UHGV virus genome: UHGV-0114978
Length of the DNA stretch: 27,991 bases
Direction: 5' to 3' (one strand)
DNA from: a virus
Made by a program: the position numbers and the translations under genes
Notes under the pieces: generated by a model
Told to the model about the DNA's origin: nothing
The model's database searches: none
Seen by the model: only the letters and a program-made list of their open reading frames with translations
In this document: piece by piece, positions 3,731 through 24,559 of the stretch
How positions within the stretch are numbered: position 1 is the stretch's first letter
How the letters are laid out: the number at the start of each line of letters is the position of its first letter

Positions 3731-5860
3731 CTATTCCTCAATACCTAACCTGCTTGAAACCTCCGGCATAACAGTAACCTGAAGGGTTTTTGATGAATCT
3801 GTGTTTTTAATTGCTATGCTGATATTGTCAGAAGTGCTGTTATTGTTTGACACTGTTATAGAGTTTGCATCCACCCCGAGTTTCGAATAAGCATCAGCAA
3901 AACTAAGACCAACACTTCCACCAACAACTCTATATGAACCATCAATTCTGAATGACGATATATTGTTATTGCTAACATCTCTAATTAGAACCCATATAGA
4001 AACGCCCCTGAAAACAAGGCTTGCCCCTGATGGTATTTGAAGTGATACAGTTCCTGTGGAACCGGGGGGGATACTGCCAGTATATTTAGTTCCGTGCAGA
4101 TATTTCCCCGGTAGATCTAAATACGAGGTGTCTGGCTGTAATAAATTATGTATATGTCTGCTATCTATGCTTCCAGACAGAACCATAGAATCATTTCCAT
4201 ATTCAATTATCCTTCCACCATCGTTACTTATTGTAAGTAATCCTTTGTTTCCTTTATTGTTTCTAACAGTTATATCAGAAGAATCCAGACGGACAATTGA
4301 TATATTTTTTTCTGTTCCATGACAATAATTTGATGAAATTTCACCTGTAACAAGTGACGTACATAAAATGTCTGAACTTCCATCACTGTCGCCAGTAATA
4401 GTGTTGCAGGAAATTAATGCACCATATACCAGACCTGTCGGAGATTCTCCAAATTGCTCTATAGTAATCCGTTTTGTGGTATTTGCTGATATGGTTATAT
4501 TATGAACATCGTCAGTTTGCGATGTTACTTTGATCCTTGATGAAACGGTATTTCCAGAAATAGTAACATTACTTGTATCATCCACCCATAAATATGACGA
4601 AAACGTATTACCTGATATGACTGAGTTACTCACCATTGAGTTCTCAAGCTCACATGAACCATAGCTATTGTTATGGTCATAATTTCCTATAATCCTTACA
4701 AATCCATTCTGGTTAATGAAGTTGTATGATGTTGCATTTTGTCCGCCATAAGTTGAGTTATGCGATGTTTCAGCATTTGTAACGCCTATATGTTGAAAAT
4801 GACCGGCATTTACAGAATCAGGAGCAACTGATGTACACCCTATTACTTTTGTGTTTTTGACAATTCTTGAATTAGGGTCATTCTCCAAATAATAGTTTTT
4901 TGCAACAAATGCCGTAGAGTAAAAGAAACCTTCAAATCTATTAAATAAAATCTGAATATCGTCATAATCTCTTTGGTCTTCATTTGCATAGCAATAAAAT
5001 GCTCTTGAAGACTCGGAGTAATCCTTGCATTTCTGAACGCCAGATAAAAGTGATCGGATTCTGCTAGATTTTATTCTAAATCCGTTGTGAATTAACGTTG
5101 CATCACCAACTAATGTTATTGGCTTAAACAATTCAACCTTATCAAAAACAAATTCACCACCATAAAATCCAAGTATAGCCCCTTCTGGTACTGCATTAAT
5201 AGCATTTTGAATTGCTACAGTATCATCTGTTATGCCGTCTCCTTTTGCACCAAAATCACGAACACTAATGGTGTCTCTCATCTTATCCTGGAACGTTCGG
5301 TACACAGCCCCAGAACCATACTGAATAAACCAACCAAAACCACCAACAACCCCGGCGATTGCAGCATCGACATAATTACGCATTGAGCGATTATTTACAG
5401 CATCCTGCTCAAGTGATGGATCTGCAAGGTTAGAAATTCTGTTTTGCTTTGCATCGTAATATTTTGCAAGCAGAGAGGGCTTCATCAATGCACGTCTGAA
5501 CCACCCAAAACATTGCTGGATCAGCATCGTCAGGTAGTCAAAGGCATCTTCATGCACTTCGGGGAAAAATTTTCCCTGATTGCGAAGGTCTGTCTCCTGC
5601 ACTACATCAAGCACACGATCTATCGTAATTCGCCATCCAGTAGCAAGCGGAGACAGAAGAACCACAGAACCGCCACTATAAGTGCCCGCCCCAGTTACCG
5701 TATAACCGGTATCCAGGACCAATTCTGTTACGTTCCCGTTCAGGTCAGACACCTGAACAACCAGGTCTGATTTTCTGAAAATTCGAAAAGTATACGGAAA
5801 CGATGTCGTAACGCCGTTACCGGTGTATTCGTTGTGGTCAACTTCGGTTGAGACCGTCAT
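3731..5860 (-). CDS. tailspike / receptor-binding protein with right-handed beta-helix (probable polysaccharide depolymerase)
   Basis: 709 aa. N-terminus (MTVSTEVDHNEYTGNGVTTSFPYTF...) resembles the virion-attachment domain of T7-type tail fibers. Motif DFGAKGDGITDDTVAIQNAI is typical of pectate-lyase-like beta-helix caps. GGAG RBS 8 nt upstream. Markedly AT-rich compared with neighbouring virion genes. Confidence 0.85.
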   Translation of the reverse strand: MTVSTEVDHNEYTGNGVTTSFPYTFRIFRKSDLVVQVSDLNGNVTELVLDTGYTVTGAGTYSGGSVVLLSPLATGWRITIDRVLDVVQETDLRNQGKFFPEVHEDAFDYLTMLIQQCFGWFRRALMKPSLLAKYYDAKQNRISNLADPSLEQDAVNNRSMRNYVDAAIAGVVGGFGWFIQYGSGAVYRTFQDKMRDTISVRDFGAKGDGITDDTVAIQNAINAVPEGAILGFYGGEFVFDKVELFKPITLVGDATLIHNGFRIKSSRIRSLLSGVQKCKDYSESSRAFYCYANEDQRDYDDIQILFNRFEGFFYSTAFVAKNYYLENDPNSRIVKNTKVIGCTSVAPDSVNAGHFQHIGVTNAETSHNSTYGGQNATSYNFINQNGFVRIIGNYDHNNSYGSCELENSMVSNSVISGNTFSSYLWVDDTSNVTISGNTVSSRIKVTSQTDDVHNITISANTTKRITIEQFGESPTGLVYGALISCNTITGDSDGSSDILCTSLVTGEISSNYCHGTEKNISIVRLDSSDITVRNNKGNKGLLTISNDGGRIIEYGNDSMVLSGSIDSRHIHNLLQPDTSYLDLPGKYLHGTKYTGSIPPGSTGTVSLQIPSGASLVFRGVSIWVLIRDVSNNNISSFRIDGSYRVVGGSVGLSFADAYSKLGVDANSITVSNNNSTSDNISIAIKNTDSSKTLQVTVMPEVSSRLGIEE

Positions 5861-5913
5861 GTTAAATCTCCAGATAGTCGCAGCACCCGTTGCGCCGCAT
5901 ATCTGGTTATTCT

Positions 5914-5935
5914 ATTACCTGAAAAACCACATATG
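5914..5935. promoter_or_regulatory. conserved 22-bp element ATTACC-N5-AACCACATATG, copy A (upstream of tailspike)
   Basis: Same element with identical internal spacing recurs at 24083..24104 upstream of the portal operon; each lies 30-75 bp upstream of a minus-strand late gene start. Confidence 0.4.
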
Positions 5936-5964
5936 GATAGGAAGGCTGTAAATATGAATAGATA

Positions 5965-5979
5965 TTACCTTTCAGGTAA
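5965..5979. promoter_or_regulatory. 15-bp palindrome TTACCTTTCAGGTAA (candidate operator), copy 1
   Basis: Perfect inverted repeat TTACC/GGTAA around a 5-bp centre; identical copy at 24146..24160, variants at 6346..6360 and 7390..7404. Confidence 0.45.
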
Positions 5980-6016
5980 TTTGCAAAACGTGCTGGATAG
6001 CAAACAAATTATTTGA

Positions 6017-6036
6017 TACTGTATAAATATACAGTT
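6017..6036. promoter_or_regulatory. LexA binding site (SOS box) TACTGTATAAATATACAGTT
   Basis: CTGT-N8-ACAG with AT-rich spacer, near-perfect match to the E. coli SOS box consensus TACTGTATATATATACAGTA; ends 19 nt upstream of ATG 6056 and overlaps a TATAAAT -10-like hexamer. Confidence 0.75.
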
Positions 6037-6055
6037 ATTGCATGGAGAAGATAAG

Positions 6056-6313
6056 ATGCAGCAGTATCACTATCCACTGGAAGACGGATTTACCGAAAGG
6101 ATTCACACGCCGGGAGGCGTCAGGTCACTGGTGGAAGGATCGCACTTGATGAAATTACTCCGGGATCTCGATAAGGATGGATTTAATGTCGATGGCCCAC
6201 TTGCCGAACTGACTGCACTGATTAACTACGTCACCAGCTCACAGATGTCTATGCGGGATCTGCAAACACATCTCGACTATTGTGCCGAACAATTACGAAA
6301 ACAAACCAGATAA
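6056..6313 (+). CDS. SOS-box-associated small protein (85 aa) homologous to the C-terminal domain of the downstream antirepressor
   Basis: Track ORF 6038..6313 begins at TTG; ATG 6056 has SD GGAGAAG 5 nt upstream. Residues about 34-80 align with Ant residues about 175-225 (by eye about 45 percent identity, for example LM.LL..L..DG..V.G..AELT...Y......RD.QTH..Y). Confidence 0.6.
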   Translation: MQQYHYPLEDGFTERIHTPGGVRSLVEGSHLMKLLRDLDKDGFNVDGPLAELTALINYVTSSQMSMRDLQTHLDYCAEQLRKQTR

Positions 6314-6345
6314 GGTTTGTAATTACCAAGTGGAGTGCTTATATT

Positions 6346-6360
6346 TACCTTTGCGGTAAA
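6346..6360. promoter_or_regulatory. palindrome TTACCTTTGCGGTAA (operator variant), copy 2
   Basis: One-base variant of the 15-bp palindrome, nested inside a longer inverted repeat GGAGTGC(6332-6338)/GCACTCC(6369-6375). Confidence 0.4.
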
Positions 6361-6451
6361 TTTACACCGCACTCCTCTTGTGCCATAGTAATCGGGCACT
6401 GGCAAAATCCAGTGCCGGGATTGGCGTCCCGGATTACTAAAAGGCGCATTC

Positions 6452-6471
6452 ACCGCGCAAGCGGTTTTTTT
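6452..6471 (+). terminator. intrinsic terminator ACCGC-GCAA-GCGGT followed by TTTTTTT
   Basis: GC stem with GNRA-type loop and a 7-T run, read from the sequence; sits 140 nt downstream of the 85-aa ORF and 160 nt upstream of ant. Confidence 0.65.
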
Positions 6472-6628
6472 ATGCGTATAGCACGGCCACATTCGTATTA
6501 TGGTGGGCTGTGTGGGGGCACCGAAAGGTGCGCCGGGTCCTTTTAGCCGGTTACGCCAACCCTGCACAGTTCACCACCAACCGATTGGCGTCGGTAGTGG
6601 TGATTAACCAGACTAAAAGGTAACCACT

Positions 6629-7324
6629 ATGACAGCTACAAAAAGCACGTCCATTTTTTCTTTCGAATCTCAAGCCGATATACGGGTAATCGTCATTAAT
6701 GGTGAGCCATGGTTTATCGCTTCAGATGTTTGTCGGGCTATAGGCATAGCAAACCATCGAGATGCTGTTCGAAAACTTGATGATGATGAGAAGGGCGTCG
6801 CTTCAACCGACACCCCTGGCGGTGAGCAAGAATCGATCATTATCTCCGAGTCAGGCCTCTACACACTGATCCTCCGCTGCCGCGATGCGGTGACACCAGG
6901 CACTATCCCATACCGCTTTCGTAAATGGGTTACAGGTGAGGTTCTTCCTCAGATCCGCCGCACCGGAAGTTACATTAAAAACTCGCTCCCGCAGGAAGAA
7001 CGCATAAAGATGGTTGCCGACCAGGTAGCCAACGCCACGGCGTCAGCAGTAATGCAGGCGATGAAGATAGAGAACAAAACCTACAGTGCCCCGCTGAAGC
7101 CCGGCTACCGCAGCCTGATTCATTCGCCGTCGGGTGTTCTCGGCCTGACGGAGAACTCACTGCTGATGAATCTGCTGAACCAGTTACAGGACGACGGGCA
7201 CGACGTATCGGGCGCGGCGGCGGAACTGACCACCATGTTCTGCTACATCGTCGGTGTGAGCAAATGCCTGCGTGATATCCAGACGCACGCGGAATACATC
7301 AACGACAAGGCAGGGTTCTTCTGA
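6629..7324 (+). CDS. antirepressor with N-terminal BRO-N (Bro/KilA-N type) domain
   Basis: N-terminal region FSFESQADIRVIVINGEPWFIASDVCRAIGIANHRDAVRKLDDDEK...SGLYTLILRC...FRKWVTGEVLPQIRRTGSY matches the BRO-N/phage antirepressor signature; 231 aa. Confidence 0.85.
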   Translation: MTATKSTSIFSFESQADIRVIVINGEPWFIASDVCRAIGIANHRDAVRKLDDDEKGVASTDTPGGEQESIIISESGLYTLILRCRDAVTPGTIPYRFRKWVTGEVLPQIRRTGSYIKNSLPQEERIKMVADQVANATASAVMQAMKIENKTYSAPLKPGYRSLIHSPSGVLGLTENSLLMNLLNQLQDDGHDVSGAAAELTTMFCYIVGVSKCLRDIQTHAEYINDKAGFF

Positions 7325-7389: not shown

Positions 7390-7404
7390 TTACCCCAAAG
7401 GTAA
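7390..7404. promoter_or_regulatory. palindrome TTACCCCAAAGGTAA (operator variant), copy 3
   Basis: Same TTACC-N5-GGTAA arms; lies about 27 bp upstream of ATG 7431. Confidence 0.4.
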
Positions 7405-24145: not shown

Positions 24146-24160
24146 TTACCTTTCAGGTAA
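24146..24160. promoter_or_regulatory. 15-bp palindrome TTACCTTTCAGGTAA (candidate operator), copy 4
   Basis: Identical to copy 1; preceded by a perfect TTGACA hexamer at 24124..24129. Confidence 0.45.
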
Positions 24161-24482: not shown

Positions 24483-24559
24483 GTGGCATTAGCTCAGTTG
24501 GACAGAGCAACCGCCTTCTAAGCGGTTGGTCGCAGGTTCGAATCCTGCATGCCACGCCA
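24483..24559 (+). tRNA. tRNA-Arg, anticodon UCU (reads AGA)
   Basis: Hand-folded cloverleaf: acceptor GTGGCAT/ATGCCAC, U8-A9, D-stem GCTC/GAGC, anticodon stem ACCGC/GCGGT with loop CU-UCU-AA, 5-nt variable loop, T-arm GCAGG-TTCGAAT-CCTGC, discriminator G, encoded CCA. Confidence 0.93.

Follow-up and report, generated by a model that had tools for sequence, protein, structure and literature searches.

A probable IsrK–C4 antisense-RNA immunity cassette of the P1/P7 immI kind ahead of a Bro-N antirepressor gene in a Uetakevirus-like prophage

What is encoded by the densely structured DNA that precedes a phage antirepressor gene, and by what means might it act on that gene? The question is raised by positions 6332-6628 of the viral sequence UHGV-0114978, analysed here as a single window of 27,991 nt, where the interval lies directly ahead of ant (6629-7324, plus strand) in an integrated Uetakevirus-like prophage. 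A preliminary description, made from the letters alone, had called the interval a leader without a convincing ORF, holding a three-way junction, an intrinsic terminator and further hairpins, and had proposed that ant is regulated at the RNA level. All of its hairpins lie where it placed them, far beyond chance expectation, and are reproduced by the minimum free energy fold of 6332-6640 (-132.7 kcal/mol, z = -7.6; 0 of 100 shuffles as stable). What looked like a structured leader belongs to a class of RNA switch already known from phages, so that the finding is real and already explained. We consider it probable that we are dealing with an antisense-RNA immunity cassette of immI type, related to c4 of P1/P7 and present here in the IsrK-C4 form that Gifsy-1, Stx phages and APSE share, with C4 as repressor of ant and IsrK as decoy. 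At the locus itself this reading is based on family membership, exact complementarity, element exposure and three-way covariation, and homologue experiments supply C4 repression (P1) and IsrK activation with compensatory mutants (Gifsy-1); for the window, we infer where transcripts end, how they are processed, and which way and how strongly the effects go.

Two curated RNA genes, isrK (RF01394) and C4 (RF01695), fill what had been described as a leader, both with full-length matches above the Rfam gathering score; a search of 451 nt returned no match beyond isrK, C4 and c4-a1b1. The ORFs inside the interval, 6500-6607 and 6510-6623, were rejected as proteins, given the lack of a Pfam match for them and the length of the conserved-AUG ORF, which ranges across loci from 14 codons to fully open. 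The cassette is present in ~17% of complete E. coli genomes (941/5426), and in every record examined there is no RNA feature annotation at the cassette, while CDS calls overlie it in several phage records. Comparisons were made over a panel of 15 loci, comprising the window and 14 fetched loci, including P1, Gifsy-1 and APSE-3. The isrK gene lies directly 5' of C4 in 13/15 fetched loci; P1 has c4-a1b1 in this place, and one locus is interrupted by IS629.

IsrK occupies 6396-6471 on the plus strand (77.9 bits against a gathering score of 50, model positions 1-77 of 77). It consists of hairpin 1 (6396-6415; arms GCACTGG at 6396 and CCAGTGC at 6409), hairpin 2 (6416-6431; arms CGGGA at 6416 and TCCCG at 6427, loop TTGGCG at 6421), a single-stranded linker and the previously noticed intrinsic terminator at 6452-6471, which is indeed there as a stem at 6452-6465 (ACCGC-GCAA-GCGGT) with a T7 run, U7 in the RNA. 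Five of the six pairs of hairpin 1 show compensatory double changes and none is broken (14 loci), and its loop, GCAAAAUC, is nearly invariant. The loop of hairpin 2 carries the element a1, TTGGCGT (6421-6427, plus strand), complementary to a' of C4, and the single-stranded linker carries b1, CTAAAAGG (6437-6444, plus strand; unpaired probability 0.8-0.95), complementary to the C4 loop b'. The same region has the c4-a1b1 architecture, with two hairpins, a1 in the second loop and b1 immediately 3'. The c4-a1b1 model (RF03163) scores 45.1 bits at 6383-6435 (E 2.5e-10 in the 451-nt search), 1.6 bits short of its gathering score of 46.7, yet the region passes the isrK model. Judged by sequence, IsrK is here the equivalent of a c4-a1b1 module with an intrinsic terminator added.

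Upstream, a consensus scan predicts a TG-extended sigma-70 promoter for isrK at 6361-6389 on the plus strand (TTTACA, 17 nt, CATAGT), and the start predicted at ~6396, a sequence-level prediction, coincides with position 1 of the isrK model; with its own promoter and terminator (6361-6389 and 6452-6471, both predicted), IsrK would be a discrete small RNA. The promoter aligns with that of Gifsy-1, whose +1 reproduces the published numbering and which itself reads TTGACA/TATATT with no inverted repeat, differing in this from the window promoter. Here the -35 is overlapped by an inverted repeat, TTACCTTTGCGGTAA (6345-6359, no strand assigned), a candidate operator by analogy with the operator Oc4 on P2c4 in P1. 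Perfect copies of the repeat number four in the window, where chance would give 0.45 even if 2 mismatches are allowed; the sequence given for the four-copy set is TTACCTTTNNGGTAA. Its position is conserved in relatives, and homology with strain PAR begins there. A hairpin at 6332-6375 was provisionally set aside as a terminator, having a tail of only 4 U and no conservation in strain PAR.

The three-way junction of the preliminary description fared less well than its hairpins. The outer stem exists, GTAATC at 6388 with GATTAC at 6432, extending to 8 bp (TAGTAATC at 6386-6393 with GATTACTA at 6432-6439, plus strand). It is the doubtful part, with 7 bp in HEMP4 and <=6 bp, the chance level, in other loci, and its 5' arm is promoter sequence, overlapping the -10 region ahead of the start predicted for IsrK. 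Since it is not conserved beyond close relatives, the junction was dropped as a conserved feature. A sporadic "third stem" of this kind was described by Weinberg (2010).

C4 follows at 6496-6581 on the plus strand (RF01695, 77.7 bits against a gathering score of 45, positions 1-87 of 87, E 7.5e-14). Folded alone, this segment reaches -45.6 kcal/mol (z = -4.7), and its architecture agrees with the Weinberg (2010) description: a 17-bp outer stem, a GAAA-capped (GNRA) hairpin at 6518-6531 (arms GCACC at 6518 and GGTGC at 6527), a second hairpin and an unpaired 3' internal loop. The long outer stem, which makes 6501-6577 one C4 RNA, had been missed earlier, as had the complements of both repeated motifs that lie inside C4, CCTTTTAG at 6539 and ACGCCAA at 6553. 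By alignment to the annotated P1 c4 (48343-48419), the mature RNA is predicted to span 6502-6578 (77 nt) and to end in ...CACCACC. The first of the complements is b', CCTTTTAG (6539-6546, plus strand; single copy in the window), in the second hairpin loop, with an unpaired probability of ~1.0 at 7/8 positions and 0.39 at one, and with a duplex energy of -9.2 kcal/mol with b1 or b2. The other is a', ACGCCAA (6553-6559, plus strand), in the unpaired 3' internal loop, with an unpaired probability of 1.0 and a duplex energy of -10.3 kcal/mol with a1 or a2. C4 therefore exposes two elements complementary to a1 and b1 upstream and to a2 and b2 downstream, the last of these at the ribosome-binding site of the same-strand antirepressor gene (Bro-N, 6629-7324).

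The downstream targets stand between C4 and ant. The element a2, TTGGCGT (6585-6591, plus strand), is the second target of a' and lies in the loop of a hairpin (6570-6603, plus strand) in which TCACCAC, from the 3' side of the C4 stem, pairs with a downstream GTGGTGA around CCGA-TTGGCG-TCGG; more closely, CACCAC at 6572 and GTGGTG at 6597 enclose CCGATTGGCGTCGG at 6581-6594. In the folding model this hairpin is an alternative fold of the unprocessed transcript, with a2 displayed in its loop. Its stem is kept at 7-11 bp in all 14 loci other than P1. PhiR12_3 shows a GC pair that is compensatory, and the inner stem, too, has changed in a compensatory way. The second target of b', b2, is another copy of CTAAAAGG (6613-6620, plus strand), unpaired in the predicted fold, which overlaps the ant Shine-Dalgarno sequence (AAGG) and is separated by 8 nt from the ATG at 6629. 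In 15/15 loci the b2 match lies 30-36 nt past C4 and abuts or overlaps the Shine-Dalgarno sequence of the downstream gene, which is antirepressor-class in every locus examined. In the window that gene encodes a Bro-N domain antirepressor (Pfam PF02498, E 2.3e-21; PHROG anti-repressor Ant families), named BRO-N domain-containing protein in RefSeq.

The two identical TTGGCG loops, which the preliminary description had singled out as likely recognition elements, are functional ones, namely the a1 and a2 sites of C4. The shared motif is longer than had been seen: it extends to the 10-mer GATTGGCGTC, whose sole two copies in the 28 kb stand at 6419 and 6583, against 0.04 expected, and a second duplicated motif, CTAAAAGG, which had escaped attention, has only two window copies, at 6437 and 6613. 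Across the panel every locus has a b' of its own, 15 in all, while a' comes in 7 versions (8 counting the flanking loop base), and both target copies change along with them. For a1:a', 98% of cells are paired, and for a':a2, 100%; in each case 5/7 pairs show double changes and 0/500 shuffles reach the score, the a:a' covariation score being 0.76 against 0.19-0.20 in shuffles and <=0.11 in slid controls. The b' loops vary in length, so that their extraction would be complementarity-guided, and the b elements were judged instead by the length of cognate and non-cognate matches: cognate b':b2 matches average 8.1 nt, non-cognate ones 4.3. The b1 cognate match keeps the same position across the panel, and among close relatives (81-96% identical) all three copies change together, one case being the gain of a single nucleotide at b1, b' and b2 alike; the HEMP4 and EC69 alleles are natural variants of these elements. 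A comparison of homologous phages had been proposed as the trial of the hairpins, and both the hairpins and compensatory changes are kept there.

The same data bear on the partner that had been suggested for the loops, either an RNA-binding protein recognising both hairpins or a contact of the hairpins with each other. That the same loop stands on two hairpins speaks for such a scheme, and the near-invariant loop of IsrK hairpin 1, GCAAAAUC, could be a protein or Hfq contact. Yet the partner is encoded between the loops, as C4: there are 7 loop variants among the phages, each matching the a' of its own C4, and since the loop changes together with a' from phage to phage a protein site or self-contact is disfavoured, such drift not being expected of a conserved protein site. 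Identical loops also cannot kiss, because UUGGCG is not self-complementary. Already contradicted by covariation, this alternative seems to us highly improbable.

In the mechanism that we propose, transcription would begin at ~6396 from the promoter at 6361-6389, and most transcripts would stop at the terminator at 6452-6471, giving a ~76-nt IsrK with two decoys, a1 displayed by a hairpin loop and b1 in unpaired RNA. Readthrough transcripts would extend through C4 into ant, and C4 (~6502-6578) would be excised from them, by analogy with P1. There, C4 excision is carried out by RNase P. Freed C4 would pair through a' (ACGCCAA) and b' (given for this step as CCUUUUAG) with a2 (6585-6591, in its hairpin loop) and b2 (6613-6620) and, because b2 covers the ant Shine-Dalgarno sequence, would block ribosome binding, so that no antirepressor is made either from the resident prophage or from an incoming phage of the same specificity. 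IsrK, with identical a1 and b1, would compete for C4 both in cis, as part of the readthrough transcript, and in trans, in its short form; more IsrK relative to C4 would therefore free a2 and b2 and turn ant on. Competition of a1/b1 with a2/b2 was Citron and Schuster's proposal, as summarised by Weinberg (2010).

The layout is that of P1/P7 immI (Citron & Schuster 1990; annotated in NC_005856), where the order is likewise promoter, a1, b1, C4, a2, b2 at the ribosome-binding site and antirepressor gene, with b' in a C4 hairpin loop, a' in the 3' internal loop and a2 directly past C4; the window order a1-b1-[b'-a']-a2-b2-SD equals the annotated one. P1 C4 belongs to the same Rfam family (68.8 bits, against 77.7 in the window), and both loci have an operator-like site at the promoter. 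P1 differs in being without the isrK-type terminator, scoring as c4-a1b1 and not isrK, in its a and b elements (TTGACAG and GTTAGTGA), in its Ant, which is of a different protein family, and in being a plasmid prophage, whereas the window element is integrated. Moreover, P1 b2 covers the ribosome-binding site of icd, and ant depends on icd being translated; b2 in the window covers that of ant itself, with no icd and no ORF between b2 and ant. The APSE phages of Hamiltonella (Rouil et al. 2020, PMC7313666) resemble the window in this respect, with annotated isrK and C4 directly upstream of a Bro-N gene, b2 at its ribosome-binding site and no intervening ORF; their specificity elements (TTCGCAT and CTAAACAGG) are different, and overall identity is ~70%.

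The closest experimental counterpart is isrK-orf45(STnc1160)-anrP of Gifsy-1 (Hershko-Shalev et al. 2016, PMC4825925), with isrK and C4 above threshold at equal spacing, an antirepressor gene downstream and the very a element of the window (TTGGCGT / ACGCCAA). Its b element is ATCACCG where the window has CTAAAAGG, and its cassette adjoins antQ, whereas that of the window adjoins a LexA-controlled ORF and the tailspike gene. For Gifsy-1, Hfq binding by IsrK and its activation of downstream antirepressor translation are known and partial terminator readthrough has been shown (PMC4825925); by analogy, readthrough of the terminator at 6452-6471 would be required for C4 and the ant mRNA. IsrK in trans raises anrP translation >100-fold, and G28A, G31A or C162U, C159U derepress anrP, with double mutants restoring the wild-type conformation (PMC4825925). 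On the present map G28A and G31A fall in a1 and C162U and C159U in a', so that the pairs G28-C162 and G31-C159 are exactly a1:a'. The literature that we found treats IsrK/orf45 of Gifsy-1 and c4/a1b1 of P1 as separate systems; because the Gifsy-1 compensatory mutations fall on the a1:a' pairing of the P1 scheme, we argue that they are one mechanism and that "orf45/STnc1160" is a C4 RNA.

The Gifsy-1 authors themselves favour a cis conformational switch with orf45 coupling over titration of a trans-acting C4, and in their experiments constitutive co-expression of the C4 homologue (STnc1160/orf45) raised IsrK toxicity (PMC4825925), a rise where a simple "repressor plus sponge" model would not predict one. 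Against the repressor–decoy reading also stand the 1.6 bits by which c4-a1b1 misses its gathering score and the cofolds in which C4 was joined to either IsrK or the ant leader, where the net gain is ~0 to -1.8 kcal/mol and the a/b contacts are absent. Such weak gain is not counted against the model, because nearest-neighbour secondary-structure cofolding cannot represent contacts between loops and internal loops, and for the same reason the output of whole-molecule duplexfold is meaningless.

Under the published switch model, C4 is not a trans-acting repressor at all: the readthrough RNA is silent while its IsrK part pairs with its C4 part. Short IsrK supplied in trans refolds this RNA and so allows translation of an ORF from the AUG in the C4 stem (6500-6607 in the window), whose ribosomes open ant. 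Native gels with two conformers, the reduced activation in orf45 start and stop mutants and 30S binding probes (PMC4825925) argue for it, as do the conserved AUG in the C4 5' stem and the match of ORF 6500-6607 to phrog_20442, the sole PHROG match of the interval ORFs. The latter is explained by CDS calls that overlie the conserved C4 RNA, ORF length varying across loci. Against the switch, the ORF from the C4-stem AUG has 14, 15, 31, 33, 35 or 45 codons or is open, and ends inside C4 in 4 loci; in Gifsy-1 it has 45 codons and overlaps the anrP start, whereas in the window it has 35 and stops 21 nt before the ant ATG, upstream of b2, so that overlap coupling is absent here. In addition, b2 sits directly on the ant Shine-Dalgarno sequence, processing would split the C4-stem AUG (by alignment to the annotated P1 c4 5' end), and a cis-only scheme needs no a2 and b2, yet these covary with a' and b' in every locus. 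We regard a purely cis switch as unlikely.

Somewhat less likely again is regulation at the level of transcription elongation, on the pattern of P4 CI or P1 icd-ant, with readthrough and not ribosome access as the main output; C4 would act on nascent a1/b1 to alter IsrK termination, or on a2/b2 to trigger a premature (Rho-dependent) stop upstream of ant. The 7 nt between the end of b1 and the terminator stem are consistent with this, and so are the overlap of the C4 stem with a terminator that Weinberg (2010) notes in some cases, the P4 CI, seqA and seqC analogy raised by the Gifsy-1 authors and the 8-fold rise of a Gifsy-1 transcriptional fusion with IsrK in trans (PMC4825925). The translational effect in Gifsy-1 is far larger, however, at 139-fold against 8-fold (PMC4825925), and the window lacks an icd-like coupling ORF and, in the stretch from C4 to ant, any hairpin that resembles a terminator with its U-run, while b2 overlaps the Shine-Dalgarno sequence in all loci, as translational control predicts. 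Beside C4 repression of ribosome access, control of terminator readthrough is possible as a secondary layer.

The P4 CI RNA with seqA/seqC shares with C4 its processing, as an antisense RNA, from a leader transcript and its position between two complementary target sites. CI acts by premature transcription termination and controls replication genes, not an antirepressor. In the Gifsy-1 paper it is named as structurally analogous to IsrK/STnc1160 (PMC4825925).

The analogy first offered for this locus was Sar of P22, whose immI (Arc, Mnt, Sar) is comparable in that ant lies between ejection/core genes and a podovirus tailspike gene and is repressed at the RNA level. Sar is made from the other strand, its transcript crossing the start and ribosome-binding site of ant, and the arc and mnt repressor genes are adjacent. 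The window regulator, by contrast, is on the same strand and upstream; a consensus scan found no minus-strand promoter-like site in 5850-6700, and the neighbouring ORFs scanned gave no regulator-family match, belonging to families of unknown function or membrane-associated ones. RNA-level regulation of ant was thus the right idea, supported by the C4 and IsrK family matches and by covariation, while Sar is of the wrong family, the layout being that of P1/P7 immI (c4).

A wider reading, which we offer tentatively and think improbable as a whole, is a two-input antirepressor circuit with an operator-set IsrK:C4 ratio, coupling by SOS readthrough and an a/b "immunity barcode". One effector domain may be deployed twice, by itself in an 85-aa protein controlled through a LexA box (SOS input) and as a Bro-N fusion under IsrK/C4 (an SOS-independent RNA input), and the operator-like inverted repeat on the isrK promoter may set the IsrK:C4 ratio. 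Readthrough from the SOS promoter may yield a 5'-extended IsrK in which b1 is partly masked by the outer stem, so that the two inputs would be linked. ORF85 was considered and rejected as a GfoA-type antirepressor, since tblastn found no homologue in Gifsy-1 and NCBIfam gave no match for ORF85, nor for Ant. The a/b elements may be a rapidly diversifying RNA "immunity barcode", as the concerted three-site changes in prophages 81-96% identical suggest.

A striking structure has thus turned out to be a textbook-class phage antisense immunity module, recognised by Rfam at full score, and the concerted three-site changes among near-identical prophages amount to natural orthogonal RNA specificities, usable for tests of the decoy model and of heteroimmunity. 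For b2, a mutated form of CTAAAAGG, CTAAGTGG, is named as a design.

The leader at 6332-6628, between an SOS-controlled reading frame and ant, carries a system that is already known, the P1 immI / IsrK-C4 cassette. A Rfam scan of the window returned full-length matches to isrK (RF01394; 6396-6471), which scored 77.9 bits where the gathering score is 50, and to the C4 antisense RNA (RF01695; 6496-6581), with 77.7 bits and a gathering score of 45. Under relaxed settings the scan also picked up c4-a1b1 (RF03163, "a1, b1 targets of C4 antisense RNA", in a common clan with C4) at 6383-6435, with 45.1 bits, 1.6 bits under threshold. By consensus scan, a promoter-like site lies at 6361-6389 (TTTACA - 17 nt - CATAGT), and its predicted start at ~6396 coincides with position 1 of the isrK model; directly after the cassette comes ant (6629-7324), a Bro-N antirepressor gene. 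The window is an E. coli prophage of Uetakevirus-like (epsilon15-like) type, integrated beside yfgI and 100% identical to strain SCZE5. Of 5426 complete E. coli genomes, 941 carry the cassette; RefSeq annotates no RNA feature at it in any record examined.

All stems and loops listed in the preliminary description, which had taken two hairpins with an identical loop as a sign of an RNA-binding regulator or a loop-loop contact, occur in the sequence where they had been placed, and the hairpins are contained in the minimum-energy structure of 6332-6640 (-132.7 kcal/mol versus -97.4 ± 4.7 in dinucleotide shuffles; z = -7.6; matched by 0 of 100 shuffles). The terminator described at 6452-6471 (ACCGC-GCAA-GCGGT plus seven U) was also called by the consensus scan, while GCACC-GAAA-GGTGC and the other "further hairpins" proved to be internal parts of a single RNA, C4, which has a 17-bp outer stem (6501-6517/6561-6577) and alone folds at -45.6 kcal/mol (z = -4.7). 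Identity between the two hairpins extends beyond the loop to an exact repeat, GATTGGCGTC, found only at 6419 and 6583 across the 28-kb window (0.04 expected).

Elements follow the same order as in the annotated P1 genome (promoters, a1, b1, c4, a2, b2, icd, ant). Upstream of C4 are a1 (TTGGCGT, 6421-6427), in the loop of IsrK hairpin 2, and b1 (CTAAAAGG, 6437-6444), in the single-stranded IsrK linker. C4 itself contains b' (CCTTTTAG, 6539-6546), in the loop of its second hairpin, and a' (ACGCCAA, 6553-6559), in its 3' internal loop. Downstream are a2 (TTGGCGT, 6585-6591), in the loop of the following hairpin, and b2 (CTAAAAGG, 6613-6620), on the AAGG Shine-Dalgarno sequence 8 nt upstream of the ant ATG; P1 has icd, whereas the window lacks it and b2 sits on the ant ribosome-binding site itself. 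CTAAAAGG occurs in the window only as b1 and b2, and CCTTTTAG once. Partition-function calculations gave an unpaired probability of 1.0 for a' and ~1.0 at seven of the eight positions of b' (0.39 at the remaining one), with b1 and b2 mostly single-stranded; duplex energies are -10.3 kcal/mol for the a and -9.2 kcal/mol for the b elements. Given this complementarity and exposure, the identical loops are duplicate target sites for the RNA encoded in the stretch that separates them. RNA-level control of ant through repeated loops stands, but the partner first proposed and the analogy with P22 Sar do not.

For comparison we fetched P1, Gifsy-1, APSE-3, HEMP4, nine Stx or lambdoid phages and several E. 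coli prophages; the panel comprised 15 loci, the window and 14 fetched, P1 among them. Of the 15 loci scanned, 13 have isrK immediately upstream of C4, the exceptions being P1, with c4-a1b1 instead, and a locus truncated by IS629. The panel holds 15 distinct b' loops and seven distinct a' elements (eight with the flanking loop base counted), and complementary sites recur at constant positions: a1 at IsrK nucleotide 26, b1 at ~40-46, a2 1-6 nt after C4 and b2 30-36 nt after C4, adjoining the Shine-Dalgarno sequence. Matches between b' and b2 average 8.1 nt for cognate and 4.3 nt for non-cognate combinations. With a elements taken by alignment position and not by complementarity, 98% of a1:a' cells and 100% of a':a2 cells are paired, each with both-side changes at 5 of 7 pairs and a covariation score of 0.76; shuffled scores were 0.20 and 0.19, respectively, and in each case 0 of 500 shuffles reached the observed value and slid controls stayed at or below 0.11.

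In prophages 81-96% identical to the window all three copies are altered together. Strain 2015C-4498 has a 1-nt insertion at each of b1, b' and b2, strain PAR reads TTGGTCT/AGACCAA/TTGGTCT at a1/a'/a2 (a CG-to-TC switch versus the window), and HEMP4 and EC69 carry CTAAGTGG/CCACTTAG as b sites. Such concerted changes suggest, from sequence comparison, diversifying selection for orthogonal immunity RNAs. These near-identical prophages with different a or b specificities are four comparison loci (L019, L020, L021 and L005), aligned to window 6380-6640. Homologues retain the hairpins and show compensatory changes in them: double changes at 5 of 6 pairs of IsrK hairpin 1, with none broken, and compensatory changes in the a2-presenting hairpin, which none of the 14 non-P1 loci lacks. 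The loop of IsrK hairpin 1 (6403-6408, GCAAAAUC, or UAUAAAGC in one clade) is near-invariant while its stem covaries freely, a conservation that the a/b pairing scheme leaves unexplained.

In P1, as summarised by Weinberg et al. (2010; PMC2864571), pairing of c4 with a2/b2 keeps ant repressed, and Citron and Schuster proposed that a1/b1 and a2/b2 compete for c4. In Gifsy-1, IsrK readthrough yields a silent isrK-orf45-anrP mRNA, anrP translation rises >100-fold when short IsrK is supplied in trans, and downstream of IsrK there is a stable RNA, STnc1160, that arises by processing; mutations G28A and G31A (IsrK) and C162U and C159U ("orf45") derepress, and double mutants regain the wild-type conformation (PMC4825925). 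The transcript numbering was checked against the Gifsy-1 sequence, where the two AUGs that the paper names do fall at A107 and 119-121: G28 and G31 fall inside a1 (T26-T32), and C159 and C162 inside a' (A158-A164), so that the Gifsy-1 experiments are direct tests of a1:a' pairing. APSE phages have isrK and C4 annotated together upstream of a BRO gene (Rouil et al.; PMC7313666), and a 2025 review still gives IsrK and c4 as unrelated systems.

The best-supported reading is C4 repression of ant with competition by IsrK. C4 would be released from readthrough transcripts, at 6502-6578 as predicted by alignment with P1, and would pair with a2 (loop) and b2 (Shine-Dalgarno), blocking ant translation. 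IsrK would be in excess because most transcripts would end at its terminator and, bearing the same two sites, would compete for C4, the IsrK:C4 balance deciding antirepressor production. Identity, complementarity, exposure and covariation are observed here; repression by C4 and activation by IsrK are carried over from the homologues, and transcript ends, processing and quantitative behaviour are inferred. In Gifsy-1, extra STnc1160 strengthens IsrK toxicity (PMC4825925), an outcome that the simple model would not lead one to expect; a conformational component acting in cis, or an influence on termination, may therefore contribute.

The outer stem described around the first two hairpins (TAGTAATC 6386-6393/GATTACTA 6432-6439) is real, with 8 bp. 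Because the 5' arm lies over the -10 region, ahead of the predicted isrK start, the stem could form only in transcripts arriving from upstream. In distant loci it does not rise above chance, and no covariation could be scored because the 5' arm is invariant among close relatives. It is the sporadic "third stem", pairing sequence upstream of the first hairpin with sequence downstream of the second, that Weinberg et al. (2010; PMC2864571) described along with the two-hairpin a1b1 motif.

The Gifsy-1 "orf45" start is an AUG within the C4 5' stem; unlike there, the window frame from this AUG ends 21 nt short of ant. Its length differs among loci (14 to 45 codons, or a frame without a stop), an argument for conservation of the RNA and not of a peptide, and no reading frame across isrK/C4 is conserved. 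Gene callers put CDSs there (window 6500-6607; comparison loci L008 525-1361, L007 963-1136 and L006 932-1099), among them an 'immunity region' CDS in phage Ayreon and orf34 in VT2-Sakai, and calls of this kind appear to be the source of phrog_20442.

A LexA box (6017-6035) precedes the 85-aa ORF at 6056-6313, whose product matches ant residues 150-223 (7076-7297) with 43% identity (E 3e-16), both matching phrog_450. By this similarity, the SOS-controlled ORF is a stand-alone paralogue of the Ant C-terminal domain, so that one effector domain turns up under two separate controls. LexA box and ORF are kept with isrK-C4-ant in HEMP4, O157 typing phage 9 and two E. coli prophages; Gifsy-1 has no homologue of the ORF. 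A long hairpin (6332-6375, GGAGTGC...GCACTCC) followed by UCUUGU lies between this ORF and the isrK promoter and encloses one copy of a 15-bp inverted repeat; it may be a weak terminator shielding isrK from SOS-driven transcription, and strain PAR does not conserve it. The repeat, TTACCTTTNNGGTAA, has four mismatch-free copies in the window, all intergenic (5965-5979, 6345-6359, 7390-7404 on the minus strand and 24146-24160), versus 0.45 expected even allowing two mismatches. One copy overlaps the -35 of the predicted isrK promoter; another overlaps a promoter-like site (TTGACA) that precedes tRNA-Arg, at its -10 position. The 5-nt spacer of the repeat is inverted in O157 typing phage 9. The repeat is a candidate operator for some regulator.

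In Ayreon and Stx phages (six comparison loci: L008, L009, L010, L012, L013 and L014), isrK-C4 precedes Rha-like or antirepressor-type regulators, which adjoin replication gene O and are not Bro-N ant. Because different genes follow it in different phages, the cassette is a portable control unit, used for several antirepressor-class genes. Elsewhere, window positions 1 to ~1300 are host chromosome (yfgH, yfgI), and the end of the prophage falls just before the lysis genes (DUF2514 protein, GH19 endolysin, holins). The tRNA gene (24483-24556, plus strand; Rfam 73.3 bits; tRNA-Arg in RefSeq) lies within the prophage, flanked by the terminase and portal genes, both on the opposite strand.
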